Source of the DNA: Octopus vulgaris
Lineage: Eukaryota
DNA length: 64,000 nt
Direction: 5' to 3'
Assembly (NCBI GenBank): GCA_951406725.2
Contig: OX597830.1
Span: forward strand, 44,268,001-44,332,000
Of this stretch, positions 6,500-58,916 are shown one piece after another; within the stretch, counting starts at the first letter, position 1; each line of letters starts with the position of its first letter. Both the position numbers and the translations under genes were made by a program. The notes beneath the pieces were generated by a model that saw only the letters and a program-made list of their open reading frames with translations, was not told the DNA's origin and did no database searches.

Positions 6500-8623
6500 C
6501 TCTTGTCCAAATTTGCTGGCTCGCGGTACATCCGCCCTCCCACACCCTCCATCTATACCGAAAGTTCCTATCCTTTGTCATCCTTCTAAAGGTTTAACAC
6601 CATCCCCACCCCTACCTAGGGTTTATCAATCATATAGTGCATAGAAATGATAGTGTAGTGTATGCAGGTTGAAGGCTACAGTTTGTTTATGAATTCTGCT
6701 AAATGCGAGGGACACTGCTGTCCCTCATCCCAGGGTTTCACGGGCCCTCACCTCCCACAGAGCTGGCACACTCAACGTCGGCATACTGAAAGGTAGGTCT
6801 GGTGAGATCGTTGAGATGCTTGAATGGAGATGTGTCGATTTGTGCTGCCTTCAAGAAGTAAGGTGGAGAGGAGGTTCCGCTAGATTCCTCACAGGCAAAG
6901 AACACAGGTGCAAGATTTTCTGGACAGGGAACACTAACAGGGTCGAGGGCGTGGGTATACTTCTTGTGGAGAAATGGGTTGATAAGGTAATCGAGGTACT
7001 CAGAGTATGTAACAGAATACTTAAGATTGGATTTGTGCCTCATCATAGTTTAGCAGCTATTATCTCGGCCTATGCCCCTCAACCAGGGCTACCTGATGGG
7101 CAGAAAGACCACTTTTATGACACCCTCTTGCAGACTACCTCGTTGACGAATGATAGGGACCTTCTCTTTGTGGCTGGTGACTTCAATGGACATGTTGAAC
7201 AACATGCAGGAGGCTTCCATGGAGGTTATGGTTTTGGTTCCCGCAATGAAGAAGGAACCACACTGCTGGAGTTCTGCGATGCAAATGATCTTATGGTTTG
7301 CAATACCAACTTCAGGAAACCTGACAGTCACCTAGGTACCTACCGTTCTGGCAGACACACTAGCCAAATTGACTACATCCTCACCAGAAAAAGAGAAAGA
7401 TGGCTGCTGATAAATGCCAAAACATTCCCAGAAGAATGTATCTCTCAACATAGACTAGTAGTTAGTGACTTCAGGATCAGGGCTAAATGGATGCCCAGAA
7501 GATGACCAGCATGGAGGAGAAGGGTCTGAAAGCTTAAAGATCCTGCAAATGGACAGAGATTTAGAGATATATTACTCAAAACCTTTGACGAAATAGAAGG
7601 GGATATAGCATCACATGATGTGGAAGACAACTGGGGGTTCCTACAGGACAACCTGCTGAGAGCCACTGACCAGATCTGTGGATGGTGCAAAGTCCCCTTT
7701 CAACCCAAAGTAACGTGGTTGTGGAACAATGTGGTTGACAGGGCTATTAGAAAAAAGAAACAGGCTTGGAAGGACTGGAAGAACGGTGGTAGCAGGGAAT
7801 TGTATCAGACTGCCAGAAGGGAAGCTAGGAGACAAGTTTATTTAGCCAGAAGGGAAGCAGATAAGAAAAAATTTGCCAATGTTCTGTACCATGAGAGAAT
7901 TGTGATGTTGTAGGAGAGAAATGTGTCCGCATGGATTATGGTTCACTTGCACTAAATGAGGCTGCAATGAGAGAGGTTTGCAGATGCCACTATGAAAAGT
8001 TGCTCAATAAAGAGAATGAATGGGAGAAAGAGAATCTGCTGAATGTTGACCCAACAGAGGGACCAGCTATCCGAATTGACAGTACCTTGATAGATAAAGC
8101 TATTAAGAATATGAAGATAGGGAAAGCCCCCGGTCCATCAGGAATTACCGCAGAGATACTCAAAATATCCGTTGGTGTCGGCTATAGCCTAGTCACTCAT
8201 ATTGTTAACCAGGTGATACATGAAGGAGTTATACCAAATGACTGGTGTAGCAGCATAATAGTCAACTGCTACAAAGATAAAGGTGACGCTTACAGAGGTA
8301 TCAAGTTGTGCCGGTCGTACGTGAAAAACAACATTCAAGTGAGGGCGTTGCCAGTGCCGCTGGACTGACTCCTGTGCAGGTGACACATAAAAACACCATT
8401 TGAGCATGGCCATTGCCAGTATTGGCTGACTGACCCTCGTGCCTGTGGCACATAAAAGCACCCACTACACTCTTGGAGTGGTTCGCATGAGGAAGGGCAT
8501 CCAGCTGTAGAAACTCTGCCAGATCAGATTGGAGCATGGTGCAGCCTACTGGTTTGCAATACCTCAGTCAAATCGTCCAACCCATGCCAGCATGGAAAGT
8601 GGACGTTAAACGACAATGATGAT
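6500..8623 (+). mobile_element. Degenerate RTE LINE retaining the APE endonuclease and 3'UTR but lacking the RT
   Basis: Motifs CCLQEVRW, GVGI, SAYAPQ, GDFNGH, SQIDYIL, HRLVV, KAPGPSG, with stops and frameshifts. Jumps from YRGIKL (~8307) to the 3'UTR and (GAT)n tail. The 5' boundary is approximate. Confidence 0.9.
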
Positions 8624-23990: not shown

Positions 23991-24038
23991 CTTGAAAAAG
24001 GAAGTGATAGTTTTCACAAATATATAGAGAAATCTTAC

Positions 24039-24137
24039 CATGTTGTCTTTGTTGGTTTCTTCTGATGAGGTACACATGTTATTGTCGTCAAACTTTATCA
24101 GAAATATAAACAATGGACACAATGTACAGAGTATCAA
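24039..24137 (-). CDS. TRPM: TRPM exon (pre-S1 elbow): LILCTLCPLFIFLIKFDDNNMCTSSEETNKDNM
   Basis: Splice sites tttcag|...|gtaaga; 99 nt, phase 0 to 0; hydrophobic pre-S1 helix. Confidence 0.9.
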
Positions 24138-24319
24138 CTGAAAGAAGAATAAAGACAAAAGGAGAGTTTCATAAAGACTCAGGGACATTCTCTGCATGGA
24201 AACAAAATTGAAATGTAAGTGTTAATATAATGTACTGAACTAAAATGTTTTAATTAATTAAAAACAGAAATGTGGGCAATGCAGTAGTGAGTATACAAAG
24301 GGGTGAATATTTATATAAT

Positions 24320-24685
24320 ATGGCTGTCTGGTAAGAAGCTTGCCTCCCAACTACATGGTTCCAGGTTCAGTCCCACTGCGTGGAACTTTGGGCAAGTGTC
24401 TTCTACTATAGCCTCAGGCTGACCAAAGCCTTGTGAGTGGATTTGGTTGACAGAAACTGAAAGAAGCCCGTCGTATATATATATGTGTGTGAGTGTGTGT
24501 GTGTGTGAGTCTGTGTTTGTCCCTCACTACTATCACTTGACAACTGATGATGGTGTGTTTATATCCCCATAACATTAGTGGTTCGGTAAAAGAGACTAAA
24601 AGAATAAGGACTAGGCTTACAAAGAATAAGTCCTGGGGTCAATTTGTTCGACTAAAGGCAATGCTCTAGCATGGCCACAGTCAAT
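24320..24685 (+). mobile_element. tRNA-derived CORE-type SINE family B (representative; copies near 4550, 25975, 38885, 40660, 45110, 49960, 54970, and minus-strand 19160, 42700, 54060, 61360)
   Basis: GGTTCAGTCCC B box, CORE-like ttgggcaagt, internal (TG)n, tail gctccagcatggccacagtc. Confidence 0.85.
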
Positions 24686-26402
24686 TGACATGACACACTG
24701 CCAGGTATGGGACTGTGGTGGTATGATCCTGTAATGTCTATGAATGAAGTTAGATGCATAAAGAAGAGCCGGTCCCTAAATCTGGATGGAACCAATGGAA
24801 GGAGACTCAGGAAGACGTAGGATGAAGTGGTAAAAAATGACCTTTCAATGTTGAACCTTGCTGAGGAGATGATAAAAGACCAAGATGACTAGTGATTTGT
24901 TGTCCTTGAGAAGACTTGTCCATTTAACCCTTTCATTACCAATCTGGCTGAAACTGACTGAGTACAAATGTCTTATTTTCATAAGTTTTGAATTAAAATC
25001 TTCCACCAAACCTTAGTCACAATTTATGTTCCTAACACTAAGGTTGATGATAACGAAGTTATTTTACTAAATTCTTTGTTATATCTAAAGTAACTGAAAG
25101 AAACACAGAGCATCTTGAAATAAATACAGTAACGAAAGAGTTAAGTAAAAATGGGGCCCTAAAGGCATGTCATTTATGTTGCTGTCCCTCTCCTCCATAA
25201 CACATCGTCCTAACACTCCTCCCTCCACTTGTGATCACCACTCACTGCACTCCCCCTCCCCCTTTCTCTTATTCTTCTTTTGTACTTTTATGAACTTTCC
25301 AGCTCACCATTTGTCCCAAACAAGAATCTCTCCTCTGCAACTCATTTTCCTAACACCAACACTCTCCACCCATGACCCTCACTACACTTCTCTCCCCATC
25401 AACTCCCACTCACCTTTCACACTCTCATGAACTTCCCTGCCTACTCACCCTCTCCAGTCCACTCTTCTACTTCACTTACATAAATAACTCCCTGTAACCT
25501 GAGGATGTACCCTGACACATCTTCATTACCATCTTCTCCCTCTCTCTCCCTTCCCCCTCCCCCTGTTTCTGTCTCTCCTCACCTTTTTCAAGCCATTTAT
25601 CTCCTCTACAGCAAGACACCTATTTCTGTCCCCTTATTCATACTCCAACGCCACCTCCCTCAACCAAGGGGTCTTGCAGGACTAGACCCCCACCTCTTCC
25701 TCAGTTGAGGGGTCCAGTCCTGCAAGATACTTGGTGACCTCACTGGTGTTGGTGCCACGTAAAAAGCATCCAGTCCATACTATAAAGTGGTTGGCATATT
25801 AGGAAGGGCATCCAGCCTTAGAAACGATGCCAGAGCAAGCTTTTGAGCTTGGTATAGGCTTCTGGCTCACTGGCTGCTGTCAGACTGTCTGATCCTTGCC
25901 AGTATAGAAGGCAGACATTAAGCAATGATGATGATGATGACGATATTGTAATTAGTATGAAATGAGTAAACTTGGTGTGGCTGTGTGGTGAGAGGCTTAC
26001 TTCCAAGCCATATGGTTTCAGGTTCAGTCCCATTGTGGGATACCTTGGGCAAGTGTCTTCTACTTTAACCTTGAGCCGACGAAAGCACTGTGAGTGAATT
26101 TGGTAGACAGAAACTGAAAGAAGCCTCTCTGTGTGTGTGTGTGTGTGTGTGTTTACTACCATCACTTGAAAAACCAGTGTTGGTGTGTTTACGTCCCTTT
26201 AACTTAGCAGTTCAGCAAAAGTGACTGATAGAAAAAGCACCAGGCTTGAAACAATAAAAAACAAAATTAGTACTAAGCTTTATTCACTCAATTAGAATTT
26301 TCCAAGGAAGTGCCTCAGCATGGCCACAGTCTAATGACTGAAGCAAGTAAAAGGTAAATGATAGAGAATAAATAGAAATAGGAAACAATTGAAATCACTG
26401 AC

Positions 26403-26628
26403 CATCCAGCTGCTGTTATTATCTTTCATTTCTCCCATCCAGATATTGTTCAGTAGAGATTGGCAAGCAGCATGAGAGATAAATTTCTTATTGTCTGCAT
26501 TTACTGCTATAAGCATACATGTGGCGTTGCTCCAGTTTTGCCGTTCTTGCACTAGTAAGTCTAATGCCATTTTTTCATCGGAAGAGTAACATTCAGTCAA
26601 AACTCCAATGGCACGTTCTTCAAAAAGA
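26403..26628 (-). CDS. TRPM: TRPM exon: LFEERAIGVLTECYSSDEKMALDLLVQERQNWSNATCMLIAVNADNKKFISHAACQSLLNNIWMGEMKDNNSSWM
   Basis: Splice sites ttttag|...|gtcagt; 226 nt, phase 2 to 0; classic MHR4/pre-S1 motifs. Confidence 0.95.
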
Positions 26629-27722
26629 CTAAAATTGATAGAAAAATTGGTATTTGTGAAAATCTACATGATAGGAATGAAGTAAAATAACGAAGTCAAG
26701 TTTAAGAGAAAATATTTTACAGTTTACATTTATCAATTTGTGTTGCAAGATTTCTGATGTGAAATTATGTTGAAACAGATATTTGTTGTCTTTCAGGATG
26801 GTCATTTCTTGCTTTCCTGTTGTCTGCCAAACAAACGCACACACTACATATTTGTTCTTCATTCATTTATTACCGTTCTTAAGACAGAGAGCTGGTAGAA
26901 TCATTAGCATGCCGGGCGAAATGTTTAGCGGTATTTTGTCTGTTTTTACATTCTGAGTTCAAATTCCACTGAGGTCGACTTTCCCTTTCATCCTTTCAAG
27001 GTTGATAAATTAAGTACCAGTTGTGTACTGGAGTTGATCTGATCGCCTGGCCCCCTCCCCCCAAATTTCAGGCCTTGTGCCTAGAGCAGAAAAGATTATT
27101 ATTATTACTATTATTGTTATTATCATTATTATTACTATCATTATCATGATTATTCTTATTATTAATAAGGTGGTGAGCTGGTAGAATCGTTAGCACGCTG
27201 GGTGAAATGCTTAGTGATATTTCATGTCTTTTATGTTCTGAGTTCAAATTCCGCCGAGGTTGACTTACCCTTTCATCCTTTCAGGATTGATAAATTAAGT
27301 ACCAGTTGCATACTGGAGTCGATCTTATCAACTGCCCCCCTCCCCCAAAATTTCGGGCCTTGTGCCCAGAGTAGAAAAGTTTACTGCTTTTATTTGACAT
27401 GAGTTAAAAAACAAATATAGTGTGTGTGTTTAATTGGCAAAAAAAAAAAAAATACTGTCCTGAAATACAACAATATTTGACAGTTTATAATCAGTCAGTT
27501 TTGGGTGGAGTGATAGAGTATGGCTTAGTGGTAAGGGTATTTGACTGCCAATCATAAGGTCATGAGTTTGATTCCTGGTGTTGCATTTGTGTCCTTGAGT
27601 AAAACACTTTATTCCATGTTGCTCCTGTGCACTCCCTGGCCAAAATGAGTAGTACCTGTATTTCAAAGGGTCAGCCTCATCATACACCGTGTCCTGCAGA
27701 ATCTCTCTGAGAACTACATTAA

Positions 27723-27951
27723 CCCTTTAGTATTCACTGTAACACTGTCAAATATAATGTTTGTTTATTTATATTGTTTAACAATATAAATGAATTTAAC
27801 ATGTACTATCTTGTAGTTTAGATAGTTTCATGTGATTGTTTAATTTTAGAATGACATTGTAGGGTTTGAGTGAGATGTATGATCTGGCCAGTTTCAACAT
27901 AAAACAGATTAAACATTTTGGTCGGATATGGCTGGCTTGAATGGTGAAGAG
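27723..27951. mobile_element. Second piggyBac-type MITE inserted in a SINE; a split sister copy spans 56063-58862
   Basis: TTAA duplicated. The empty site gagaactacgttaagggta is visible in the SINE copy at ~19730. Confidence 0.8.
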
Positions 27952-28154
27952 TTAAGAGTATGTATGTCTGTGGAATACTCAGCTACTTGGAAGCTAATTT
28001 CACGAGCAGGCTGTTCTATTGATTGGATCAACTGGAACACTCGTCATCATAGCCAACTGAATGCCAGTTTTATTGGGTAATCTATTTAAGAAGCCCCTGT
28101 GATTTTTTATCTGAAGAACATATGGACACTCAGCAGTCGCTTGATTAGTTAATA

Positions 28155-31100
28155 CAGTGGTTCCCAAACTGTGGTCCGTGGACTCCCGGTGGTCCTCAAA
28201 GGTAGTACTGAAGGGTCCTTGAACTAAATTCAAAATTTCATAAATATATATAGAAGCACAATTAAAGGTTACAAACCTCATTCAAGGATAGCAGAATCCT
28301 ATGAAAGTACTGGTTAATTACCTATACAAAGAGTATTGAACATTATATCTAATACTTCACTGCAAGGTAACTATTTAAACTGTGGTTTATATATATTTTA
28401 TTTATCATAATAATAAGATGAGAGAATAGAGAGGTAATTAATGAATTACTATTTATTAATTAATTACCTGATCAAAGAGGGTGCCGAAAGAGATCAAAGA
28501 GGAGTCCCGACCGAGATCAAAGAGGGTGCCGAAAGAGATCAAAGAGAATTCCCGAAAGAGATCAAAGAGGGTAACGAAAAAGATCAAACAGGGTACCGAA
28601 AGAGATCAAAGAGGAGACCCGAACGAGATCAAAGAGGGTGCCGAAAAAGATCAAAGAGGGTAACGAAAAAGACCAAAGAGGGTGCCGAAAGAGATCAAAG
28701 AGGGTGCCGAAAGAGATCAAAGAGGAGTCCCGAACGAGATCAAAGAGGGGTGCCGAAAGAGATCAAAGAGGGTGCCGAACGAGATCAAAGAGGGTGCCGA
28801 ACGAGATCAAAGCGGGTGCCGAAAGAGATCAAAGAGAAGTCTCGAAAGAGATCAAAGAGGGAAACGAAAAAGATCAAAGAGGGTGCCGAAAGAAATCAAA
28901 GAGGAGTGCCGACAAAGATCAAAGATGAGTGCCGAAAAAGATCAAAGAGGTGTGCCGACAAAGATCAAAGAGGAGTGCCGACAAAGATCAAAGAGGAGTG
29001 CCGACAAAGATCAAAGATGAGTGCCGACAAAGATCAAAGAGGAGTGCCGACAAAGATCAAAGAGGAGTGCCGACAAAGATCAAAGAGGAGTGTCGACAAA
29101 GATCAAAGATGAGTGCCGACAAAGATCAAAGATGGGTGTCGACAAAGATCAAAGAGGAGTGTCGACAAAGATCAAAGATGAGTGCCGACAAAGATGGGTG
29201 TCGACAAAGATCAAGGAGGAGTGCCGACAAAGATCAAAGAGGAGTGCCGACAAAGATCAAAGAGTAGTGCCGACAAAGATCAAAGAGGAGTGCCGACAAA
29301 GATCAAAGAGGAGTGCCGACAAAGATCAAAGAGGAGTGCCGACAAAGATCAAAGAGGAGTGCCGACAAAGATCAAAGAGGGTGCCGAAAGAGATCAAAGA
29401 GGGTGCCGAACGAGATCAAAGAGGAAGTGCCGAAAGAGATCAAGGAGGAGTGCCGACAAAGATCAAATAGGAGTGTCGACAAAGATCAAAGAGGAGTGCC
29501 GACAAAGATCAAAGATGAGTGCCGACAAAGATCAAAGATAGGTGTCGACAAAGATCAAAGAGGAGTGCCGACAAAGATCAAAGAGGAGTGCCGACAAATA
29601 TCAAAGAGGGTGCCAAAAGAGATCAAAGAGGAGTGCCGACAAAGATCAAAGACGAGTGCCGACAAAGATCAAAGAGGAGTGCCGACAAAGATCAAAGAGG
29701 GTGCTGAAAGAGATCAAAGAGGAGTGCCGACAAAGATCAAAAGGAGTGCCGACAAAGATCAAAGATGAGTGTCGACAAAGATCAAAGAGGAGTGCCGACA
29801 AAGATCAAAGAAGGTGCCGAAAGAGATCAAAGAGGAGTGCCGACAAAGATCAAAGAGGAGTACCGACAAAGATCAAAGAGGAGTGCCGAAAGAGATCAAG
29901 GAGGAGTGCCGACAAAGATCAAATATGAGTGTCGACAAAGATCAAAGAGGAGTACCGACAAAGATCAAAGATGAGTGCCGACAAAGATCAAAGATGAGTG
30001 CCGACAAAGATCAAAGATAGGTGTCGACAAAGATCAAAGAGGAGTGCCGACAAAGATCAAAGTGTAGTGCCGACAAAGATCAAAGAGGAGTGCCGACAAA
30101 GATCAAAGAGGAGTGCCGACAAAGATCAAAGAGGGTGCCGAAAGAGATCAAAGAGGGTGCCGAACGAGATCAAAGAGGAAGTGCCGAAAGAGATCAAGGA
30201 GGAGTGCCGACAAAGATCAAATAGGAGTGTCGACAAAGATCAAAGAGGAGTGCCGACAAAGATCAAAGATGAGTGCCGACAAAGATCAAAGATAGGTGTC
30301 GACAAAGATAATAGAGGAGTGCCGACAAAGATCAAAGAGGAGTGCCGACAAAGATCAAAGAGGAGTGCCGACAAAGATCAAAGAGGAGTGCCGACAAAGA
30401 TCAAAGAGGGTGCGAAAAGAGATCAAAGAGGTGTGCCGACAAAGATCAAAGACGAGTGCCGACAAAGATCAAAGAGGGTGCTGAAAGAGATCAAAGAGGA
30501 GTGCCGACAAAGATCAAAAGGAGTGCCGACAAAGATCAAAGATGAGTGTCGACAAAGATCAAAGAGGGGTGCCGACAAAGATCAAAGAGGAGTGCCGACA
30601 AAGATCAAAGAGGAGTACCGACAAAGATCAAAGAGGAGTGCCGAAAGAGATCAGGAGGAGTGCCGACAAAGATCAAATAGGAGTGTCGACAAAGATCAAA
30701 GAGGAGTACCGACAAAGATCAAAGATGAGTGCCGACAAAGATCAAAGATGAGTGCCGACAAAGATCAAAGATAGGTGTCGACAAATATCAAAGAGGAGTG
30801 CCGACAAAGATCAAAGTGTAGTGCCGACAAAGATCAAAGAGGAGTGCCGACAAAGATCAAAGAGGAGTGCCGACAAAGATCAAAGAGTGTGCCGACAAAG
30901 ATCAAAGCAGGTGCCGAAAGAGATCAAAGAGAAGTCTCGAAAGAGATCAAAGAGGGTAACGAAAAAGATCAAAGAGGGTGCCGAAAGAGATCAAAGAGGA
31001 GTGCCGACAAAGATCAAAGAGGAGTGCCGACAAAGATCAAAGATGAGTGCCGACAAAGATCAAAGAGGAGTGCCGACAAAGAACAAAGATGAGTGTCGAC

Positions 31101-34100
31101 AAAGATCAAAGATGAGTGCCGACAAAGATCAAAGATGAGTGCCGACAAAGATCAAAGAGGAGTGTCGACAAAGATCAAAGAGGAGTGCCGACAAAGATCA
31201 AAGAGGAGTGCCGACAAAGATCAAAGAGTAGTGCCGACAAAGATCAAAGAGGGGTGCCGACAAAGATCAAAGAGGAGTGCCGAAAGAGATCAAGGAGTGC
31301 CGACAAAGATCAAATAGGAGTGTCGACAAAGATCAAAGAGGAGTGCCGACAAAGATCAAAGATGAGTGTCGACAAAGATCAAAGATGAGTGCCGACAAAG
31401 ATCAAAGATGAGTGCCGACAAAGATCAAAGAGGAGTGCCGACAAAGATCAAAGAGGAGTGCCGACAAAGATCAAAGAGGAGTGCCGAAAAAGATCAAAGA
31501 GGAGTGCCGAAAAAGATCAAAGTGGGTACCGAAAGAGATCAAAGAGGAGTGCCGACAAAGATCAAAGGGGGTACCGAAAGAGATCAAAGAGGAGTGCCGA
31601 CAAAGATCAAAGAGGAGTGCCGACAAAGATCAAAGAGGAGTGCCGACAAAGATCGGTGTCGACAAAGATCAAAGAGGAGTGCCGACAAAGATCAAAGAGG
31701 AGTGCCGACAAAGATCAAAGAGGAGTGCCGACAAAGATCAAAGAGGAGTGCCGACAAAGATCAAAGAGGAGTGCCGACAAAGATCAAAGAGGAGTGCCGA
31801 CAAAGATCAAAGAGGAGTGCCGACAAAGATCAAAGAGGAGTGCCGACAAAGATCAAAGAGGGTGCTGAAAGAGATCAAAGAGGAGTGCCGACAAAGATCA
31901 AAGAGGAGTGCCGACAAAGATCAAAGATGAGTGTCGACAAAGATCAAAGAGGGGTGCCGACAAAGATCAAAGAGGAGTGCCGACAAAGATCAAAGACGAG
32001 TGCCGACAAAGATCAAAGAGGAGTGCCGACAAAGATCAAAGAGGAGTGCCGACAAAGATCAAAGAGGAGTGCCGACAAAGATCAAAGAGGAGTACCGACA
32101 AAGATCAAAGATGAGTGCCGACAAAGATCAAAGATGAGTGCCGACAAAGATCAAAGATAGGTGTCGACAAAGATCAAAGAGGAGTGCCGACAAAGATCAA
32201 AGTGTAGTGCCGACAAAGATCAAAGAGGAGTGCCGACAAAGATCAAAGAGGAGTGCCGACAAAGATCAAAGAGTGTGCCGACAAAGATCAAAGAGGTGCC
32301 GAAAGAGATCAAAGAGAAGTGCCGACAAAGATCAAAGAGGAGTGCCGACAAAGATCAAAGGGGGTGCCGAAAGAGATCAAAGAGGAGTGCCGACAAAGAT
32401 CAAAGAGGAGTGCCGACAAAGATCAAAGAGGGTGCCGAAAGAGATCAAAGAGGGTGCCGAAAGAGATCAAAGAGGGTGCCGAAAGAGATCAAAGAGGAGT
32501 GCCGACAAAGATCAAAGAGGGTGCCGAAAGAGATCAAAGAGGAGTGCCGACAAAGATCAAAGAGGAGTGCCGACAAAGATCAAAGAGGAGTGCCGACAAA
32601 GATCAAAGAGGAGTGCCGACAAAGATCAAAGAGGAGTGCCGACAAAGATCAAAGAGGAGTGCCGACAAAGATCAAAGGAGTGCCGACAAAGATCAAAGAG
32701 GAGTGCCGACAAAGATCAAAGATGAGTGCCGACAAAGATCAAAGATGGGTGTCGACAAAGATCAAAGAGGAGTGCCGACAGAGATCAAAGAGGAGTGCCG
32801 ACAAAGATCAAAGAGGAGTGCCGACAAAGATCAAAGAGGAGTGCCGACAAAGATCAAAGAGGAGTGCCGACAAAGATCAAAGAGGGTGCCGACAAAGATC
32901 AAAGAGGAGTGCCGACAAAGATCAAAGAGGAGTGCCGACAAAGATCAAAGAGGAGTGCCGACAAAGATCAAAGAGTGCCGACAAAGATCAAAGAGGAGTG
33001 CCGACAAAGATCAAAGAGGAGTGCCGACAAAGATCAAAGAGGAGTGCCGACAAAGATCAAAGAGGAGTGCCGACAAAGATCAAAGAGGAGTGCCGACAAA
33101 GATCAAAGAGGGTGCCGACAAAGATCAAAGAGGAGTGCCGACAAAGATCAAAGAGGAGTGCCGACAAAGATCAAAGAGGAGTGCCGACAAAGATCAAAGA
33201 GGAGTGCCGACAAAGATCAAAGAGGAGTGCCGACAAAGATCAAAGATCAGAGTGCCGACAAAGATCAAAGAGGGTGCCGACAAAGATCAAAGAGGAGTGC
33301 CGACAAAGATCAAAGAGGAGTGCCGACAAAGATCAAAGAGGAGTGCCGAAAGAGATCAGAGGAGTGCCGACAAAGATCAAAGAGGAGTGCCGACAAAGAT
33401 CAAAGAGGAGTGCCGACAAAGATCAAAGATGAGTGCCGACAAAGATCAAAGAGGAGTGCCGACAAAGATCAAAGATAGAGTGCCGACAAAGATCAAAGAG
33501 GAGTGCCGACAAAGATCAAAGATGAGTGCCGACAAAGATCAAAGAGGAGTGCCGACAAAGATCAAAGAGGAGTGCCGACAAAGATCAAAGAGGTGCCGAC
33601 AAAGATCAAAGCAGGTGCCGAAAGAGATCAAAGAGGAGTGCCGACAAAGATCAAAGGGGGAGTGCCGACAAAGATCAAAGAGGAGTGCCGACAAAGATCA
33701 AAGAGGAGTGCCGACAAAGATCAAAGAGGAGTGCCGACAAAGATCAAAGAGGAGTGCCGACAAAGATCAAAGAGGAGTGCCGAAAGAGATCAAAGAGGAG
33801 TGCCGAAAAAGATCAAAGAGGAGTGCCGACAAAGATCAAAGAGGAGTGCCGACAAAGATCAAAGAGGAGTGCCGACAAAGATCAAAGAGGAGTGCCGACA
33901 AAGATCAAAGAGGAGTGCCGACAAAGATCAAAGATGAGTGCCGACAAAGATCAAAGATGGGTGTCGACAAAGATCAAAGATGAGTGCCGACAAAGATCAA
34001 AGAGGAGTGCCGACAAAGATCAAAGAGGAGTGCCGACAAAGATCAAAGAGGAGTGCCGACAAAGATCAAAGAGGAGTGCCGACAAAGATCAAAGAGGGTG

Positions 34101-37100
34101 CCGAAAAAGATCAAAGAGGAGTGCCGAAAGAGATCAAAGAGGAGTGCCGACAAAGATCAAAGAGGAGTGTCGACAAAGATCAAAGAGGAGTGCCGACAAA
34201 GATCAAAGAGGAGTGTCGACAAAGATCAAAGATGAGTGCCGACAAAGATCAAAGAGGAGTGTCGACAAAGATCAAAGAGGAGTGCCGACAAAGATCAAAG
34301 AGGAGTGCCGACAAAGATCAAAGAGGAGTGCCGACAAAGATCAAAGAGGAGTGTCGACAAAGATCAAAGAGGGTGCCGACAAAGATCAAAGAGGAGTGCC
34401 GACAAAGATCAAAGAGGAGTGCCGACAAAGATCAAAGATGAGTGCCGACAAAGATCAAAGATGGGTGCCGACAAAGATCAAAGAGGAGTGCCGACAAAGA
34501 TCAAAGAGGGTGCCGAAAGAGATCAAAGAGTAGTGCCGATAAAGATCAAAGAGGAGTGCCGACAAAGATCAAAGAGGGTGCCGAAAGAGATCAAAGAGGA
34601 GTGCCGACAAAGATCAAAGAGGAGTACCGACAAAGATCAAAGAGGAGTGCCGACAAAGATCAAAGAGGAGTGCCGACAAAGATCAAAGAGGAGTGCCGAC
34701 AAAGATCAAAGAGGGTGCCGAAAGAGATCAAAGAGGGTGCCGAAAAAGATCAAAGAGGGTGCCGAAAAAGATCAGGAATGTTTGGAATGTCAGGAATGTC
34801 TGGAATGTCAGGAATGTTTGGAACGTGAGGAATGTCAGAGATCAAAGACGGTGCCGACAGAGATCAAAGAGTGTGCCGACAAAGATCAAAGAGGGTGCCG
34901 ACAAAGATCAAAAACGGTGCCGATAGAGATCAAGGAGTGTGCCGACAAAGATCAAATACGGTACCGACAAACGGTTCAAACTGGATCAAGCATGATCAAA
35001 CCGGTTCAAATGTCAGGAATGTCAGGGATGTCAGGAATGTCTGGAATGTCAGGAATGTCCCGAATGTCAGGAATGTCTGGAATGTTTGGAATGTCAGGAA
35101 TGTCTGAAATGTCAGGAATGTTTGGAATGTCAGGAATGTCTGGAATGTCAGGAATGTTTGGAATGTGAGGAATGTCAGAGATCAAATACGGTGCCGACAG
35201 AGATCAAAGAGTGTGCCGACAGAGATCAAAGATTGTGCCGACAGAGATCAAAGAGTGTGCCGACAAAGATCAAAGCGGGTGCCGAAAGAGATCAAAGAGA
35301 AGTCTCGAAAGAGATCAAAGAGGGTAACGAAAAAGATCAAAGAGGGTGCCGAAAGAGATCAAAGAGGAGTGCCGACAAAGATCAAAGATGAGTGCCGACA
35401 AAGATCAAAGAGGTGTGCCGACAAAGATCAAAGAGGAGTGTCGACAAAGATCAAAGAGTGTGCCGACAAAGATCAAAGAGGAGTGCCGACAAAGATCAAA
35501 GATGAGTGCCGACAAAGATCAAAGAGGAGTGCCGACAAAGATCAAAGATGAGTGCCGACAAAGATCAAAGATGGGTGTCGACAAAGATCAAAGAGGAGTG
35601 CCGACAAAGATCAAAGAGGGTGCCGAAAGAGATCAAAGAGGAGTGCCGACAAAGATCAAAGAGTAGTACCGACAAAGATCAAAGAGGAGTGCCGACAACG
35701 ATCAAAGAGGAGTGCCGACTAAGATCAAAGTGGGTGCCGAAAGAGATCAAAGAGGGTGCCGAAAAAGATCAAAGAGGGTGTCGAAAAAGATCAGGAATGT
35801 CAGGAATGTCTGGAATGTCTGGAATGTCAGGAATGTTTGGAACGTGAGGAATGTCAGAGATCAAAGACGGTGCAGACAGAGATCAAAGACGGTGCCGACA
35901 GAGATCAAAGAGTGTGCTGACAAAGATCAAAGACGGTGCCGACAGAGATCAAAGACGGTGCCGATAGAGATCAAGGAGTGTGCCGACAAAGATCAAATAC
36001 GGTACCGACAAACCGGTTGAAACCGGATCAAACCGGTTCAAACTGGATCAAGCATGATCAAACCGGTTCAAATGTCAGGAATGTCTGGAATGTCAGCAAT
36101 GTTTGGAATGTCAGGAATGTCTGGAATGTTGGGAATGTTTGGAATGTGAGGAATGTCAGAGATCAAATATGGTGCCGACAGAGATCAAAGATTGTGCCGA
36201 CAGAGATCAAAGAGTGTGCCGACAAAGATCTAAGACAGTGCCGACAGAGATCAAAGACGGTGCCGACAAAGATCAAGTGCGGTCCCGACAAACTGGTTCA
36301 AACCAGATCAAACCGGTCCAAACCGGTTTAAACCGGATCAAACCGGTTCAAACTGGATCAAGCCTGATCAAACCGGTTCAAATGTCAGGAATGTCAGGAA
36401 TTTCAGTAATGTCTGGAATGTCTGGAATGTCAGGAATGTCTGGAATGTAAGGAATGTCTGGAATATCAGGAATGTCTGGAATGTCTGGAATGTTTGGAAT
36501 GTGAGGAATGTCAGAGATCAAAGACGGTGCCGACAGAGATCAAAGAGTAGTACCGACAGTGATCAAAGACGGTGCCGACAGAGATCAAAGAGTGTTCCGA
36601 CAAAGATCAAAGAGGGTGCTGACAGAGATCAAAGACGGTGCCGATAGAGATCAAGGAGTGTGCCGACAAAGATCAAAGACGGTGCCGACAGAGATCAAAT
36701 AGTGTGCCGACAAAGATCAAATACGGTGCTGACAAACCGGTTCAAACCGGATCAAACTGGATCAAACCAGATCAAGCCGGTTCAAACCGGATCAAACCGG
36801 TTCAAACTGGATCAAGCCTGATCAAACCAGTTCAAATGTCAGGAATGTCAGGAATTTCAGGAATGTCTGGAATGTCAGGAATGTCAGGAATATATATATA
36901 ATATATATACTACTTCATTTTATTAAACACTGTAAGTATTACATCAGTTTTAAAATGTCGAGCAATCTTCAGTCACATATAGAATTTTCTAGTTAAACGG
37001 ACAATGCACATTCTTATTCCTATTTCATATATATATACACACACACATAAGGATAAGCATATTAAATGGGGTCTGTGGGAAAACTCATTTAAATAAAAGG

Positions 37101-37114
37101 GTTGGGAACCAATG
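28155..37114. mobile_element. hAT/Charlie-type non-autonomous element enclosing the satellite
   Basis: Left TIR CAGTGGTTCCCAAACT (28155); right TIR GGGTTGGGAACCAATG (ends 37114). The 8-bp flanks agttaata and ggccaaca differ by four transitions, so a decayed TSD is possible but weak. Confidence 0.65.
28470..36891 (+). repeat. 8.4-kb compound satellite: 23/22-bp (GATCAAAGAGGAGTGCCGACAAA / GATCAAAGAGGGTGCCGAAAGA), 9-bp (GGAATGTCA/CT/TT) and 10-bp (AAACCGGTTC/AAACYGGATC) units
   Basis: Directly visible tandem array in TRPM intron 26629-37277. About 330 22/23-mers, estimated from length divided by period. The 9-mer and 10-mer blocks are confined to 34775-36891. Confidence 0.98.
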
Positions 37115-37277
37115 GGCCAACACTTTCATTTTAGAAATACACGACACATAAAATTCTATAATATACAAGATTTTATTTGCACTTAAGGGATTAAGGAAAA
37201 AGATTTGGAAACTGTTGCAAACAGTTATTTTTCTGATAATAATGAGGATAATGATATATATATATTTATAGACTTAC

Positions 37278-37378
37278 TCAGCATGTTCCTGAAGTTTGAT
37301 CTTTTGGTCATAATCTTTAGACCGGAGTTTCAAGGACTTGAGCAATTTATTTGCGACTAAAGCAGATGGTAAAGCCTC
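37278..37378 (-). CDS. TRPM: TRPM exon: EALPSALVANKLLKSLKLRSKDYDQKIKLQEHA(D)
   Basis: Splice sites tactag|...|gtaagt; 101 nt, phase 0 to 2; ALVAxKLxxSL motif. Confidence 0.92.
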
Positions 37379-37831
37379 CTAGTAAAAGAAGCACTAAATG
37401 TTAACACATTGAAACAGGCAGAAGACGAATTAAACAACAACAATAACAATAACAACATGAAGAATGAAAATTGCTTTTGTTCTTTATTGATTAATTATGA
37501 ATTTAAATGTTGAAGTGAATCTAATAGTTTTTGTGTGTTTTTAAATGGCTTATAAACACCTTCCACGCTGCAATTGTTTTTATTCCAGCACACGATTTCA
37601 GATCAGGTCACATGCTATGCAAGTACATCTCCGTAATATGAATTTTAATGTTTCATATGAAACTATATACTTCTTCCTGGAAACATCAAAAAAGTTTTAA
37701 TAGGACATGGAACGATGAAAAGAGGTTGAATTATGAATGTCTGCATGTTTAAATGAGTCCATGAATTGAGTCACTCTATGCTCATTTATGCTCGGAGTGT
37801 TGAAAAAATGCAGTTTAAAATTGCATGAGTC

Positions 37832-38070
37832 AAATAAGCAAGCTGAGTCACATGGATAACCTGAGCTGTATGAACAAGATGAACTACATGAGCAAGCTGA
37901 GTAACATGAGTAAACTGAGCCACTTGTAAAAACTGAACCACATAAGCAAGTTAAGTTGTATGAGAAAGCTGAGCTACACGAGCAAGCTGAGCCACATGAC
38001 CAAGCTGAGCCACATGACCAAGCTGAACCACATGACCAAGCTGAACCACATGACCAAATTGAGCCATATC
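37832..38070 (+). repeat. 18-bp minisatellite (CAAGCTGAGCCACATGAC)n, degenerate
   Basis: About 13 copies, most homogeneous at the right end. Confidence 0.85.
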
Positions 38071-39653
38071 AATCCATAAATCCATAAAGGCCTTGTATTA
38101 ATTTAACTTTGTCATTTTACATTCAGTTCCCCTTGGAGTTATTTTTTGGTCATATAAAACAGAATCTCAATAAACATTCAAAGCAGTTCAAATATACAGA
38201 AAAATTATTATCTCTGAATCTCTTAATGAGAAACATTCAGTAACAATACTCTAGAGTAAAGATTATTTGCCAGCATAATGTGGTAGTCCTGGTTAGGATG
38301 AATGTTACTGTTATTTAGCCCCAGGAAACATCATCTGTGTCCTTGTATTTTCGAACAAGGGGGTTTAGCATCCCTACTCAGCACAAAGCAATATCTGTAT
38401 ACCCCAGTTTCTGGGTTATTTCTCTTTGTCAGTATAGAAGAACTGCTTGGCTAGAGATGGCACTGCTAAATTCGTGTTTGTGACATATTTGACTTGTAAA
38501 AATGGCAGTTTTCATTGTAGTTTGCTGTGGAGAAAAAAATTCTTGCTTTAGGTAAAAAAAAGGTGTTAAAAACACTAGCAGTCACTTCATGGCAACTTCT
38601 GGCAGAATAATGAATGCATTTCAAGTTATTTGGCTATCACCAGCATTGTGTATTGCAAAAGAGAGACCACCCTGAAAATCAGTATCAAAGCATTAACTGA
38701 TTATGTGTGACACAGGCCAGGCTGGAGCCAAAGGCTGTTGTTGGCAAATGAAAGCAGTGTAACATTGGTTGAAATGTCTGTAACAGTTCTCTGCCAAAAC
38801 TGGCTTTAACCCATGCCAGCATGGACAACGGATGCTAAATGATGATGATGTTGATGATGTGCCAAGAACAAAAAAATAATTATTAGGTGCAGGTATGGCT
38901 GTGTGGTAAGATGCTTGCTTACCAACTACATGGTTCGAGGTTCAGTCCCACTGCATGGCACCTTGGATCAGTGTCTTCCACAATAGTCTCAGGTCAACCA
39001 AAGCCTTGTGAGTGGATTTGGTAGGGAAAAACTGAAAGAAGCCTATTGTTATATGTGTATTTGTGTGTGTTTCTCACTCACCACTTGACAACCAGTGTTG
39101 GTGTACTTACATCACCATAACTTAGTGGTTCAGCAAAAAAGACCAATAGAATAAGTACCAGGTTTAAAGAAAAAATAAAAAGTATTGGGGGTTGATTCAT
39201 TTGACTAAAAATTCTTGAAAACAATGCTCCAGTATGGTCACAGTCTAATGACAGAAACAAGAGCACTCAGAGAGTGCAAACCTCTGCCAAGGCAACACCA
39301 ACATCCTCTCAAAGATTAGCCAGAGATGATTTTTAAAATGAGAATATCTGAAATATACTTGATTGCTCTCACAAACGAGAATACTAAAAATGAACCTGAC
39401 CGCTCTAAAAAATTAAGTAAAAAAAAAAACGGAAAATTATCCAGAATCCATGTCTGGTACCAGATCGATCCCCAAATCTAATCAGTTTGTGCCAGTCATG
39501 AGGCCAAACATCCCTGGAAGTTTCATCTGAATCCATCCAGCAGTTCTTGAGATATTTTGTCCATGGACAAACGAACAAACAAACAACTGAAAGATAAAAG
39601 TAACAAATAAAAGATAAAAGACAAAATATAGTTCTTGTAACAATCTAACTTAC

Positions 39654-39742
39654 CATTCCTTCTTTCCAAAACAGAAATGCCATTTCTTGCCGGTTTAAAA
39701 GAACTGACCATAGAAACAATTCATTTGCAGGATAATTGAAGT
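39654..39742 (-). CDS. TRPM: TRPM exon: FNYPANELFLWSVLLNRQEMAFLFWKEGM
   Basis: Splice sites tttcag|...|gtaagt; 89 nt, phase 1 to 0; MHR4 motif. Confidence 0.94.
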
Positions 39743-39760
39743 CTGAAATAAAAAAAATTA

Positions 39761-40504
39761 TCATCATCAATATCTATAAAACTGAAATGCGAAAAAGTTG
39801 TTTGATTTCTTGGTTGTTTGTCTGATTTTGGGATGGGAACGGTTTAAGGGGCGGTAGATGGGGTCAGATTGGCGCCAAATTTTACACTGGGGGGTAAAAT
39901 GGGGTGGGCAATAGTGTGAGGAGAGTTGCAAGTCGCTCGGGGCAACCGTTTGGTTGCCATGGTGAGGAATATGGGAAAAATTGAGTTTTATGGGATAGAC
40001 AGGTTGCGCTGTTTGAATAATGGTGGCTTTTCGTGTTACTGCAGGGACTAGAGGCGGTTATCTTTCATTGTAAGTGTAAAAATTTGGGGAGTTTTGGAAA
40101 GTGGGGTAAAAGTTTTCAACTTTTAAAAAGAGTACATTTTTGCCCTATTTTTAGATTTAATATTTTTCTTTTTGCATTATTTGTTTGACATGGGTAAAAA
40201 TGGCATTGTGTTAAAGGCCAAAATTTTAGCTTTCATTTGCATCATGAACCGTCAAAATATACCAGAAAAAAGTATCAAATTTCACAAAATTTTAAGTAAT
40301 TTTGAGTTATTTTTGTGATTTTACGTGCACGCGTAAGTGAAAGTGAGGGAGTCCGAGGGAAAGGAAGAGTAAGAGAGTGGGAAAGTGAGAGAGAAAGGAG
40401 AGAGAAACAAAGAGGGAGAATGTAGCGATAAGAAACAGAAAGGAAGCAACAGAAAGTAACAACCACACCCTCACCCGTGCATAGAGCGGGTCACCTTAAG
40501 CTAG
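39761..40504 (+). mobile_element. Helitron-like non-autonomous element
   Basis: 5' TC...atctataaaact start; 3' GC-rich hairpin cccgtgcatagagcggg followed by CTAG|T. The 5' boundary is approximate. Confidence 0.6.
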
Positions 40505-41039
40505 TCCCATTGTAAATTGAAATTCCATAGAAAAGTGAGGGAGAATTGAACATCTTAATGTTTTGCTGATTCTATTCATATTTTTCAGAAATGACTATTT
40601 TCTAGAATTTTCTACAACCCTGCCCCCACCACCAAAAAAAAAAAAAGACTAACATGCATGAGTGGCAGTGTGGTAAGAAACTTGTTTCCCAACCGTATGG
40701 GCCTGGGTTCAGTCCCACAGTGTGGTACCTTGGGCAAGTGTCTTCTACTATAGCCTTGGGCCAACCAAAGCATTGTGATAGGATTTGGTATAGGGAAACT
40801 GAAAGAAGCCTGTCGTGTGTGTGCATATATATATATACACATATACATAAATAAATGTAAGAACTTACTGCGGACAAGGTTGCTTGGCATTCAATTATAA
40901 GTAAATAAGAAATACACATTAAGTACAGGACAAAATACCAAAAAGTACACAATAAGAACAGGACTTCAACAACGAGTGAAAAATATGTAAACGAGAGACA
41001 AGTATGAGACAAAATACTAAAAAAGTCTAACTCCTCTGC

Positions 41040-56635: not shown

Positions 56636-58760
56636 CATCATCATCATCATGATGATCATCATCATGATGATCATCATCATTTAACGTCCGCTTTCCATGC
56701 TAGCATGGGTTGGATGGTTCAACTGGGGTCTGGGGAGCCCGAAGGCTGCACCAGGCCAGTCAGATCTGGCAGTGTTTCTACAGCTGGATGCCCTTCCTAA
56801 CGCCAACCACTCCGAGAGTGTAGTGGGTGATTTTATGTGCCACCGACACAGGTGCCAGACGAGGCTGGTGAACGGCCACGCTCGGATGGTGTTTTTATGT
56901 GCCACCGACACAGGTGCCAGACGAGGCTGGCGAACGGCCACGCTCGGATGGTGTTTTTATGTGCCACCGACACAGGTGCCAGACAAGGCTAGCAGACGAC
57001 CACGCTCGGATACGTTCGGATGGTTTTCTCGTGTGCCACCGGCACTGGTACCATAAAGATACAAATTCCATTGATGTTCATCTATTTTGATTTTGTTTGA
57101 TTTTTTGATTTGATTTGATTTTGATTTGATTTGATTTTCACTTGCCTCAACAGGTCTTCACAAGTGTCACAAGAAGGAAGGTATGCACAGGTGGACTGAC
57201 TACGTCCCAGGTAGGGGCCACGGGTTATGGCCTGACTAGTCTTGCCGGGTCTTCTCACGCACAGCATACTTCCATAGGTCTTGGTCTCTAGTCATTTCCT
57301 TGGTGAGACCTAAAGATCGAAGGTCGTGCTTCACCACTTCGTCCCAGGTTTTCCTGGGTCTACCTCTTCCACAGGTTCCCTCAACTGCTAGGGTGTAGCA
57401 CTTTTGCACACAACTATCTTCAGCCATTCTTGTCATATGACCATACCAGCGCAGCCGTCTCTCTTGCACACCACAACTGACGCTTCTTAGGTTCAACTTT
57501 TCTCTCAAGGTACTTACACTCTGACGATTATGAACACTGACATTACACATCCATCGGAGCATACTGGCTTCATTTCTTGCGAGCTTACGCATATCCTCAG
57601 CAGTCACGGCCCATGTTTCACTACCATGTAGCATGGCTGTACGTACACATGCATCATACAGTCTGCCTTTTACTCTGAGCGAGAGGCCTTTTGTCACCAG
57701 CAGGGGTAAGAGCTCTCTAAACTTTGCCCAGGCTATTCTTACTCTAGCAGTTACACTTTCAGCACACCCACCCCCGCTACTGACTTGGTCTCCTAGGTAG
57801 CAGAAGCTATCAACTACTTCTAGTTTGTCTCCCTGGAACGTGGTAGAAGTTGGTCTCTGCACGTTTCCAGAGTTTATTTCTCCTGAGCATCTGCCACATA
57901 CGAAAACTATCTTCCCAGTTAGCCTACCTTTGACATTGCTGCACCTCTTATGTGTCCATAGCTTACACTTGGTGCACCTTATAGAGTTTCTACCTACACC
58001 TTTTTTACAGATCGAGCAGGGCCATCTACCTGAAGTCGTTTGTGGTTGGTCCACCTTCCTACTTATTAGGACTTTGGTTTTGGCTAGGTTGATTCTAAGG
58101 CCCTTCGATTCTAATCCTTGTTTCCACACCTGAAACTTCTCCTCCAGTTCTGATAGTGACTCAGCAATTAGAGCAAGGTCATCAGCATAGAGGAGCTCCC
58201 AGGGGCATCCTGTCTTGAATTCTTCCGTTATTGCCTGGAGGACTATGATAAATAGGAGGGGGCTGAGGACTGAACCTTGGTGGACCCCAACCTCTACCCG
58301 GAATTCTTCACTGTACTCGTTGCCTACCCTCACCTTACTAGCAGCGTCTCTGTACATGGCTCGCACAGCTCTCACTAACCATTCATCTATCCCTAGTTTC
58401 CTCATTGACCACCAGATAAGGGATCGGGGGACCCTGTCAAAGGCTTTCTCCAAGTCAACAAAAGCCAGGTACAAGGGCTTACCTTTGGCTAGGTATTTCT
58501 CCTGCAGCTGTCTTACCAGGAATATAGCATCAGTAGTACTTTTCCCTGGCACGAACCCAAACTGCATATCATCTAAGCTAACTCTCTCTCTAATTAATTG
58601 GGCTATAACCCTCTCCGTAACCTTCATTACCTGATCCAACAGCTTGATGCCCCTGTAGTTATTTGTATCTAGGGCGTCACCTTTACCTTTGTAGCAGTTG
58701 ACTATTATGCTGCTACACCAGTCATTGGGTATGACTCCTTCGTGTATCACCTGGTTAACA
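56636..58760 (-). mobile_element. Young 5'-truncated RTE-clade LINE with 3'UTR and (ATG)n tail
   Basis: Uninterrupted RT ORF, three ~60-bp tandem repeats in the 3'UTR (56830-57010), (CAT)n tail, possible tgttt TSD. Confidence 0.93.
57236..58750 (-). CDS. RTE reverse transcriptase, 5'-truncated, 504-aa open frame with an inserted C4HC3 finger
   Basis: Motifs NYRGIKLL, QFGF, FVDLEKAFD, GVHQGSVLSPLLF, YADD, FCYLG, RLRWYGH, GRGRPRKTW. Confidence 0.92.
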   Translation of the reverse strand: MIHEGVIPNDWCSSIIVNCYKGKGDALDTNNYRGIKLLDQVMKVTERVIAQLIRERVSLDDMQFGFVPGKSTTDAIFLVRQLQEKYLAKGKPLYLAFVDLEKAFDRVPRSLIWWSMRKLGIDEWLVRAVRAMYRDAASKVRVGNEYSEEFRVEVGVHQGSVLSPLLFIIVLQAITEEFKTGCPWELLYADDLALIAESLSELEEKFQVWKQGLESKGLRINLAKTKVLISRKVDQPQTTSGRWPCSICKKGVGRNSIRCTKCKLWTHKRCSNVKGRLTGKIVFVCGRCSGEINSGNVQRPTSTTFQGDKLEVVDSFCYLGDQVSSGGGCAESVTARVRIAWAKFRELLPLLVTKGLSLRVKGRLYDACVRTAMLHGSETWAVTAEDMRKLARNEASMLRWMCNVSVHNRQSVSTLREKLNLRSVSCGVQERRLRWYGHMTRMAEDSCVQKCYTLAVEGTCGRGRPRKTWDEVVKHDLRSLGLTKEMTRDQDLWKYAVREKTRQD

Positions 58761-58916
58761 CCTGTTTATTTCTAGAATACATTGTAAGAGGCCAGATCCA
58801 GCCAATTTGAACATAAAACAGAATATTTGGGCCAAATATTGGTTGATTGAAATGCTAAAGATTTAAACAGTATAAATTTGCTCTGCCAGTAATTAGATTA
58901 TGGAATATTTACAGAC

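Follow-up and report, generated by a model that had tools for sequence, protein, structure and literature searches.

An intronic array of three unit types

The window analysed here, 64,000 bp of Octopus vulgaris DNA (contig OX597830.1, positions 44,268,001 to 44,332,000), contains a tandem array at 28470-36891 on the plus strand, inside an intron of a TRPM gene. Units of three types, 22/23 bp, 9 bp and 10 bp long, constitute the array; an earlier reading made from the letters of the window (the sequence-only reading) had described them, and both Tandem Repeats Finder (TRF) and a block map confirm its bounds and periods. The units resemble binding sites of TCF, TEAD and CP2/Grainyhead (Grh) factors, respectively, and recur elsewhere in the genome. 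The reading that we prefer, and to which we give about an even chance, is that the array belongs to a modular satellite superfamily that would serve as a transcription-factor platform, spread by break repair and template switching, with protein binding favouring the units that are amplified.

TRF reports a 23-bp array at 28470-35793 (322 copies) together with 9-bp and 10-bp blocks, the last of which ends at 36891, and the commonest form of the 22/23-bp unit occurs in 122 exact copies. In the block map (Table 1), TCF-type units cover 7,550 bp, TEAD-type units 569 bp in six blocks and CP2/Grh-type units 286 bp in four. The proposal of an array built from TCF, TEAD and CP2/Grh sites stands in that all three modules are present and fails in their proportions: the TCF unit makes up 90% of the array, including all of its opening 6.3 kb, whereas the other two are confined to the final 2.1 kb. 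Counted on both strands, the 9-bp HMG core occurs 295 times in the array and once in the remaining window, the TEAD double motif 35 times and not at all, and the Grainyhead palindrome nine times and not at all. A loose pair of CP2 half-sites (16 in the array, 54 in the remaining window) is common outside too and is therefore weak evidence on its own. The observed/expected ratio of CpG is 0.90 in the array and 0.29 in the remaining window.

A search found no long near-identical duplications inside the array, an Rfam scan of 24000-41000 gave no structured-RNA match, and no RNA dataset is among those listed as holding array sequence. A coding function is ruled out, as the 22/23-bp period is not a multiple of three and the open reading frames (ORFs) on the plus strand only reflect the absence of stops. 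The array is not an invention of the assembly (2.8 Gb in 227 contigs), a doubt that the sequence-only reading had itself raised: contigs of four public runs from four studies contain TEAD and CP2 units, and in three of these runs a listed contig spans a TEAD-CP2 junction, although the contigs vouch for the units and the junction and not for the 8.4-kb length.

Table 1. Positions of the array, its edges and the adjoining exons in the window, and of composite arrays on other contigs
Feature	Position	Strand	Remarks
TRPM exon downstream of array	~26400..26620 (bounds approximate)	-	PF25508, E=1.6e-17
Left arm of ~400-bp element with terminal inverted repeats, interrupted by array	28155..28252	+	array-free copy in L120 has both arms
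Foldback-like dispersed repeat lying inside the first, truncated by array at 28463	28240..28463	+	other copies compared
Left junction	28459..28469	+	final 11 bp repeat, in inverted orientation, a sequence ~25 bp upstream (snap-back filler)
Main TCF-type block	28470..34772	+	22/23-bp units: HMG site, then Helper-like site 4-5 bp on
Mixed region, cycle TCF, CP2/Grh, TEAD, TCF	34773..36891	+	junctions recur at other loci
TCF blocks inside mixed region	34838-34971, 35178-35791, 35857-36011, 36159-36290, 36514-36734	+	block map
9-bp TEAD-type blocks	34773..34837, 35009-35177, 35792-35856, 36071-36158, 36381-36513, 36835-36891	+	TRF, block map
10-bp CP2/Grainyhead-type blocks	36735..36834, 34972-35008, 36012-36070, 36291-36380	+	TRF, block map
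Right junction: short TA tract, then right arm of inverted-repeat element (36907-37114)	36892..37114	+
TRPM exon upstream of array	37278..37378	-	translation and splice sites; sits between exons with Pfam TRPM2 matches
Composite array, ~100 kb	C14:64,374,400-64,476,400		sampled in part
Composite array, ~100 kb	C18:1-102,000		start of contig
Composite array, >=40 kb	C2:215,452,000-215,494,000		near contig end

Site syntax of the three units

The TCF unit is bipartite, with an HMG site accompanied by a site resembling the C-clamp Helper site in the 'Akimbo' (AK) orientation. Drosophila Wnt-responsive cis-regulatory modules (CRMs) and synthetic HMG-Helper reporters likewise join the two sites in the Akimbo orientation, which is favoured in fly studies, and Helper sites require the C-clamp (PMC4154663; here and below, published syntax is taken from excerpts of the papers cited). 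The octopus unit is identical to the HMG probe of that work at 10 of 11 bases, and the 7-bp word that follows carries six of the seven bases of the fly Helper consensus, hence one mismatch, and the full 4-bp human Helper core. Among 295 HMG cores, 193 have the spacing AK5, 56 AK4 and nine other spacings, while 37 are without an intact Helper core, which places 249 of the 295 at an Akimbo spacing of 4-5 bp; the step from the Helper to the next HMG site is KK0. Compared with the fly probes, the 23-bp unit resembles AK6 and its step to the next unit KK0, yet its own spacing is AK4/AK5 and not AK6, which ranked best; AK5 was used in earlier binding work, AK0-6 are enriched in chromatin immunoprecipitation, and human TCF1E prefers AK2-9 (PMC4154663). 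A further difference from the fly elements is one of number, with hundreds of tandem copies here and a few there. The HMG-Helper pairs have the orientation and spacing of a Wnt-responsive CRM, and by its sequence the TCF array is a predicted Wnt-responsive element.

The host genome has a TCF gene on contig C6 (contigs are numbered C and the stretches examined L). Its TCF-type HMG exon lies in L093/L114, and a cysteine-rich exon about 31 kb downstream in L117 is, as we take it from its residue pattern, the C-clamp exon; a search for Pfam PF08347 gave no match. Two similar copies of the second HMG exon of this gene lie about 11 kb apart in L114 and L115 (C6:42.75-42.77 Mb) and are possibly mutually exclusive.

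On the minus strand, one of the two common 9-bp forms of the TEAD unit is identical to the single site to which PMC12008814 assigns the highest affinity. The unit's period of 9 bp is that of the cooperative Tead double motif, which in the models of that work is weakened by a spacing change of 1 bp. The 10-bp unit occurs in two alternating forms, the Grainyhead palindrome and a variant that differs from it by one base, and within its blocks CP2 half-sites stand 10 bp apart in runs of at least three, in keeping with the motif definitions for Grh and CP2 in PMC5829564 and PMC9223585. In these sources Tead and Grh/CP2 sites are isolated enhancer elements, whereas here they are satellite monomers. 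Seven bases of the 10-bp unit recur in the TCF unit, from which it may derive. The sequence-only reading named sites and periods (9 bp and 10 bp) that agree with this published syntax (PMC4154663, PMC12008814, PMC5829564, PMC9223585). Its case is stronger than it was stated, because of the Helper site, which that reading missed, and of further modules found elsewhere.

A dispersed family and the arrival of the TRPM copy

Dispersal across the genome, which had been raised as a possibility, is borne out. A search with the three-module end of the array returned 696 matches, from 35 of 253 candidates scored, and exact patterns match the genome 2,013 times for TCF, 389 times for TEAD and 104 times for CP2/Grh units, with none for the reversed controls; the listed rows, counted by hand, amount to at least about 60 separate places. 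Of the first 20 stretches examined, several hold all three modules, as the suggested search for other loci of this grammar was meant to find, and several hold TCF units only. Junctions recur from TCF to CP2/Grh in 18 stretches, from TEAD to TCF in 12 and from CP2/Grh to TEAD in 10, usually passing through a few shared bases, and arrays often reverse orientation internally. Head-to-tail units in long non-coding arrays at many loci are the marks of satellite or minisatellite DNA, and across the family the arrays range from about 0.3 to 100 kb and are scattered. Over the intron flank, samples B and C show 0 differences in 445 bp and 1 in 182 bp; they thus come from the same or a very close species and give no proof that the family is old.

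The CP2/Grh matches led to larger composite arrays on C14, C18 and C2 (stretches L036-L048 and L055-L066), in which the units of the window join others, with many internal inversions. By eye, 13-bp and 20-bp units match the MEF2 consensus, a 21-bp unit an octamer, a 52-bp unit a STAT site, a 22-bp unit an NRF1 site and a 58/59-bp unit inverted TEAD half-sites, the comparison being made with Table 1 of PMC1702496. A named site is carried by about 9 of 11 unit types. Genome counts are 48 for the NRF1-type, 1,816 for the 13-bp MEF2-type and 528 for a Y-type unit, with controls at 0. The NRF1-type unit is often alone and joins other modules directly in three stretches, so its membership of the superfamily is the least secure; an overlapping word in it, which we take to be E2F-like, is poorly conserved. 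Blocks of this unit alternate with a 152-bp tandem repeat, presumably SINE-like (short interspersed nuclear element), on C18 and C30 (L056, L110, L111). A degenerate 70/73-bp variant of the STAT-type unit lies at L055:3640-4500 and contains words that we assume to be NF-kB-like, as we assume a word of the 52-bp unit to be CSL/Su(H)-like.

With large arrays at the beginning of C18 and close to the end of C2, regional clustering on C13, C5 and C14, and single arrays that adjoin telomere-like repeats or an assembly gap, the family could be a structural satellite of centromeres or subtelomeres, to which transcription factors would bind in the manner of CENP-B. We think this very improbable, as the largest arrays seen reach about 100 kb (in this assembly, where arrays could be collapsed), exact-pattern totals run from hundreds to about 2,000, and many copies are small and interstitial.

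The copy in the TRPM gene lies within two nested dispersed repeats. The outer one is an inverted-repeat element of about 400 bp, which we take to be hAT-like, and the inner one is foldback-like; all seven other copies of the latter that were examined run on into other sequence, without an array. Because the array is inserted into both repeats, it is younger than they are, and the TRPM copy is a secondary insertion. No target-site duplication was seen at the ends of the array of the window, other loci having been inspected by eye only, and no listed contig from other samples bridges the array edge to unique flank. Inverted filler and loss of flank are the repair signature of templated insertion at a break. 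The junctions seen here fit, by their sequence anatomy, an event of this kind, in which array sequence was inserted into a double-strand break and flanking DNA was lost.

Near the array edges, shared flanks or termini were absent from 21 stretches (the window and 20 others), and the near-edge matches that occurred were to another satellite module or to unrelated repeats. On this ground a carrier transposon or the tail of a long interspersed nuclear element (LINE) is ruled out. A repeat borne by a transposon of the miniature inverted-repeat transposable element (MITE) or Helentron type is likewise rejected, since neither shared termini nor a target-site duplication was found and the window junctions show deletion with inverted filler. 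The 216 bp to the left of the array belong to a separate dispersed repeat and are ruled out as a donor flank. One LINE family occurs near several arrays at varied distance and orientation, with a direct join in L028 only; there, its reverse-transcriptase ORF (L028:1-1840) stops about 115 bp from the array, and its short tandem 3' tail passes into 13-bp MEF2-type units via a few shared bases. An origin in the spacer of ribosomal DNA (rDNA) was also rejected, as the one rDNA unit read (18.6 kb) contains none of 12 satellite units and has 0 12-mers in common with them. The rDNA cluster lies on C20:23.96-24.07 Mb (L139, L140) in units of about 18.4 kb; the 18S and 28S matches, at about 2.6 and 4.9 kb, are unusually long, and the spacer has repeats of 189 bp and 141 bp.

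These results bear on the idea of a parasite relic, in which the modules would descend from an enhancer carried by a transposon or DNA virus and would have multiplied as satellites once that carrier was lost. Viral enhancers typically combine many kinds of signal-responsive site, and the constant order TCF-CP2-TEAD, seen at 10-18 stretches, points to descent from a single unit; SV40 itself carries the TEAD double motif (PMC12008814). Nevertheless we find this origin unlikely: no carrier element was found, the 21 stretches are without shared flanks or termini, and the long ORFs in the neighbourhood of arrays belong to various retroelements from several families, whose distance and orientation to the array vary.

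The TRPM gene lies on the minus strand, and ORFs flanking the array match Pfam LSDAT_euk and TRPM2. The host intron measures about 10.6 kb, of which the array makes up about 79%, and the array stops about 390 bp short of the 5' splice site of exon 37278-37378. This proximity, the optimal site syntax with its conservation, and the CpG ratio, which is compatible with an unmethylated or young array, would all suit a device selected by the host: multi-pathway enhancers, or sinks buffering beta-catenin/TCF, YAP/TEAD and other factors, with the TRPM copy tuning TRPM. We regard such a device as rather unlikely, given the insertion into nested repeats, a module content that differs widely among loci (TCF units only in some) and larger arrays that are pure repeat across tens of kilobases. 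As such, the dedicated super-enhancer for TRPM proposed in the sequence-only reading is not supported, the copy being a secondary insertion in two older dispersed repeats and the 21 stretches being without shared termini.

Conservation, chance and a proposed transcription-factor platform

Conservation was measured without anchoring on the motif, and the mask of site positions was ranked among all its circular shifts. In the TCF unit (2,251 monomers from 31 stretches), mismatch is 1.2-5.6% over the HMG core and 3.6-8.5% over the Helper core, compared with 9.5-30% at most spacer positions; three positions outside the sites are also conserved (2-5% mismatch). The TCF mask ranks first of 22 shifts, and site positions mismatch less than others both at G/C (5.4% vs 20.3%) and at A/T (1.6% vs 4.8%), with 8 distinct common variants over 13 site positions as against 16 over the 9 others (p=0.010). 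The TEAD mask ranks first of 9 (p=0.12), with one degenerate position at about 50:50 A/T, and the common TEAD-unit variants in the contigs of the four public runs fall mainly at that same position. The NRF1-type mask ranks first of 22 (p=0.10), although its core contains CpGs; shifted by one base to the strict consensus position, it ranks second (by hand). In the TCF, TEAD and NRF1 units conservation is thus highest at the sites, and since the monomers are kin these are indications and not independent tests. The earlier impression of invariant motif bases and variable spacers holds, per position, for the TCF and TEAD units and fails for the CP2/Grh unit.

Could neutral minisatellites have come to resemble transcription-factor sites by chance, with conservation reflecting subfamily history? 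Hand arithmetic, which assumes uniform bases, a library of 300 motifs and independent modules, gives 0.02 for TEAD (18/4^9 x 300), 0.05 for Grainyhead (10/4^8 x 300), 0.013 for HMG (46/4^10 x 300) and 0.06 for a Helper core in the right orientation within eight spacings. The product for three modules with the Helper geometry, about 1e-6, is overstated, being too favourable because of the seven bases that the 10-bp and TCF units have in common. In favour of chance, the estimate against it is this arithmetic and not an empirical library shuffle, modules have words in common and may derive from one another, three of seven modules are without extra conservation and one is weak, and short units often match some motif, as in HSat3, where 42 of 828 motifs are enriched (excerpts of bioRxiv 10.1101/2024.10.22.616524). 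We nonetheless judge the chance reading improbable. The 9-bp unit combines the best single TEAD site with the cooperative period (PMC12008814), and the TCF unit combines its near-complete HMG and Helper matches (10/11 and 6/7 bases) with the favoured orientation. In a weak control of 23 other tandem repeats, about five proved to be family variants and about 18 unrelated ones showed, by eye, no comparable full-length site, and about 9 of the 11 unit types of the family carry a named one.

On our preferred reading of a modular platform spread by break repair, TCF would bind each 22/23-bp unit via HMG domain and C-clamp, TEAD would bind the 9-bp units as cooperative pairs, and CP2/Grainyhead would bind the 10-bp units. 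Arrays occupied in this way would remain accessible and come together in the nucleus, and both properties would promote template switching between arrays, mixing modules at short shared words with frequent inversions. Pieces of array would be copied into DNA breaks, and units that keep a good site would be amplified preferentially. The TRPM copy would be such a break-repair insertion, any effect on TRPM being incidental. The anatomy of the units, with four separate syntax matches in the three modules, their dispersal, the recurrent junctions, the anatomy of the insertion, the relative conservation of three site types, the host C-clamp, the further modules with named sites and the precedent of TEAD and YAP on HSat3 argue for this reading.

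Several observations weigh against it. HMG sites without an intact Helper core nearby number 37 of 295, and a change breaks the Helper core in about 12% of 23-bp units. Two 13-bp modules, the F and Y types, match by eye no named entry in the table of PMC1702496. Extra site conservation is absent from the CP2/Grh (rank 8/10), octamer (14/21) and 20-bp MEF2 (5/20) units and weak in the 13-bp MEF2 unit (3/13); the TCF unit alone reaches p<0.05, and all p-values are optimistic because the monomers are related by descent. The reference motifs come from fly, mouse and human, binding and function are predictions from sequence, and the step by which binding promotes amplification is pure inference.

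The closest known system is HSat3, which in the excerpts of bioRxiv 10.1101/2024.10.22.616524 is bound by TEAD, by which YAP is recruited, and by other pathway factors, with cooperative binding on repeated sites being proposed. Both satellites are dense in TEAD sites and carry motifs for several pathway factors. In contrast, HSat3 consists of degenerate pentamers repeated in megabase arrays next to rDNA, while the octopus family has scattered, shorter arrays, one unit per factor with matching period, a bipartite TCF site and shuffled modules, and the one rDNA unit read contains none of them. Of the features of an HSat3-like platform, high motif density is present and megabase arrays are absent, the largest being about 100 kb in this assembly with collapse possible; binding has been shown for HSat3 and is predicted for the octopus satellites. 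Motif-based binding to tandem repeats is also illustrated by satellites of mouse and fly, to which Pax, Foxd3, YY1 and other factors bind (cited in the same excerpts), with one monomer bearing incidental sites instead of a linked set of single-factor modules. By analogy, the best reading is of a family like HSat3-TEAD but with exact multi-pathway syntax. In bivalves, another spiralian group, satellites in short dispersed arrays are carried inside Helitron/Helentron or MITE elements; here there is no common carrier, and the repeats flanking the array of the window lack it in their other copies. No prior description of such a satellite was found in the literature, subscription journals, repeat databases and bioRxiv supplements lying outside the scope of the search, and an entry without a name in a repeat library is possible.

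Whether protein binding shapes satellite sequence is a long-standing question, and most monomers are unreadable in this respect. The octopus monomers can be read against defined rules (HMG-Helper spacing, the TEAD 9-bp period and the CP2 10-bp period) in thousands of natural variants, so that selection on satellite sequence, titration of factors by repeats and the birth of signal-responsive enhancers are directly testable, and the units would be candidates for natural reporters of Wnt and Hippo signalling in an animal group where such tools are scarce. Their sequence suggests that protein binding may shape the evolution and spread of a satellite repeat. A bolder version, which we hold tentatively and consider appreciably less probable than even, sees self-propagating 'enhancer-grammar' satellites in which selection would have fitted each module to a single signalling effector (Wnt/TCF with C-clamp, Hippo/TEAD, Grh/CP2, MEF2, POU, STAT, NRF1), recombined like cassettes and seeded genome-wide, with binding driving satellite evolution. 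Ready-made signal-responsive elements or factor sinks would then be scattered into genes.

Some minor features were recorded at array edges and in their surroundings. Telomere-like hexamer repeats directly adjoin the edge of an interstitial array in L016 (C8:56.729 Mb), and many array ends adjoin TA, CA or ATT microsatellites (L020, L025, L031, L033, L034, L035 and the window), against a high background of such tracts. Near the end of contig C2 (L067-L068, C2:215.53-215.57 Mb), a very homogeneous 65-bp satellite (99% matches) that is unrelated to the family lies next to an AAT tract of 5 kb. An unrelated 18-bp tandem repeat (37826-38066) occupies part of the next TRPM intron with 13 copies, a few of which contain a word that we take to be AP-1-like. 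Fragments of retroelement endonuclease/reverse-transcriptase ORFs, presumably RTE-like, lie in TRPM introns at 6693-8365 on the plus strand and 57239-58765 on the minus strand.

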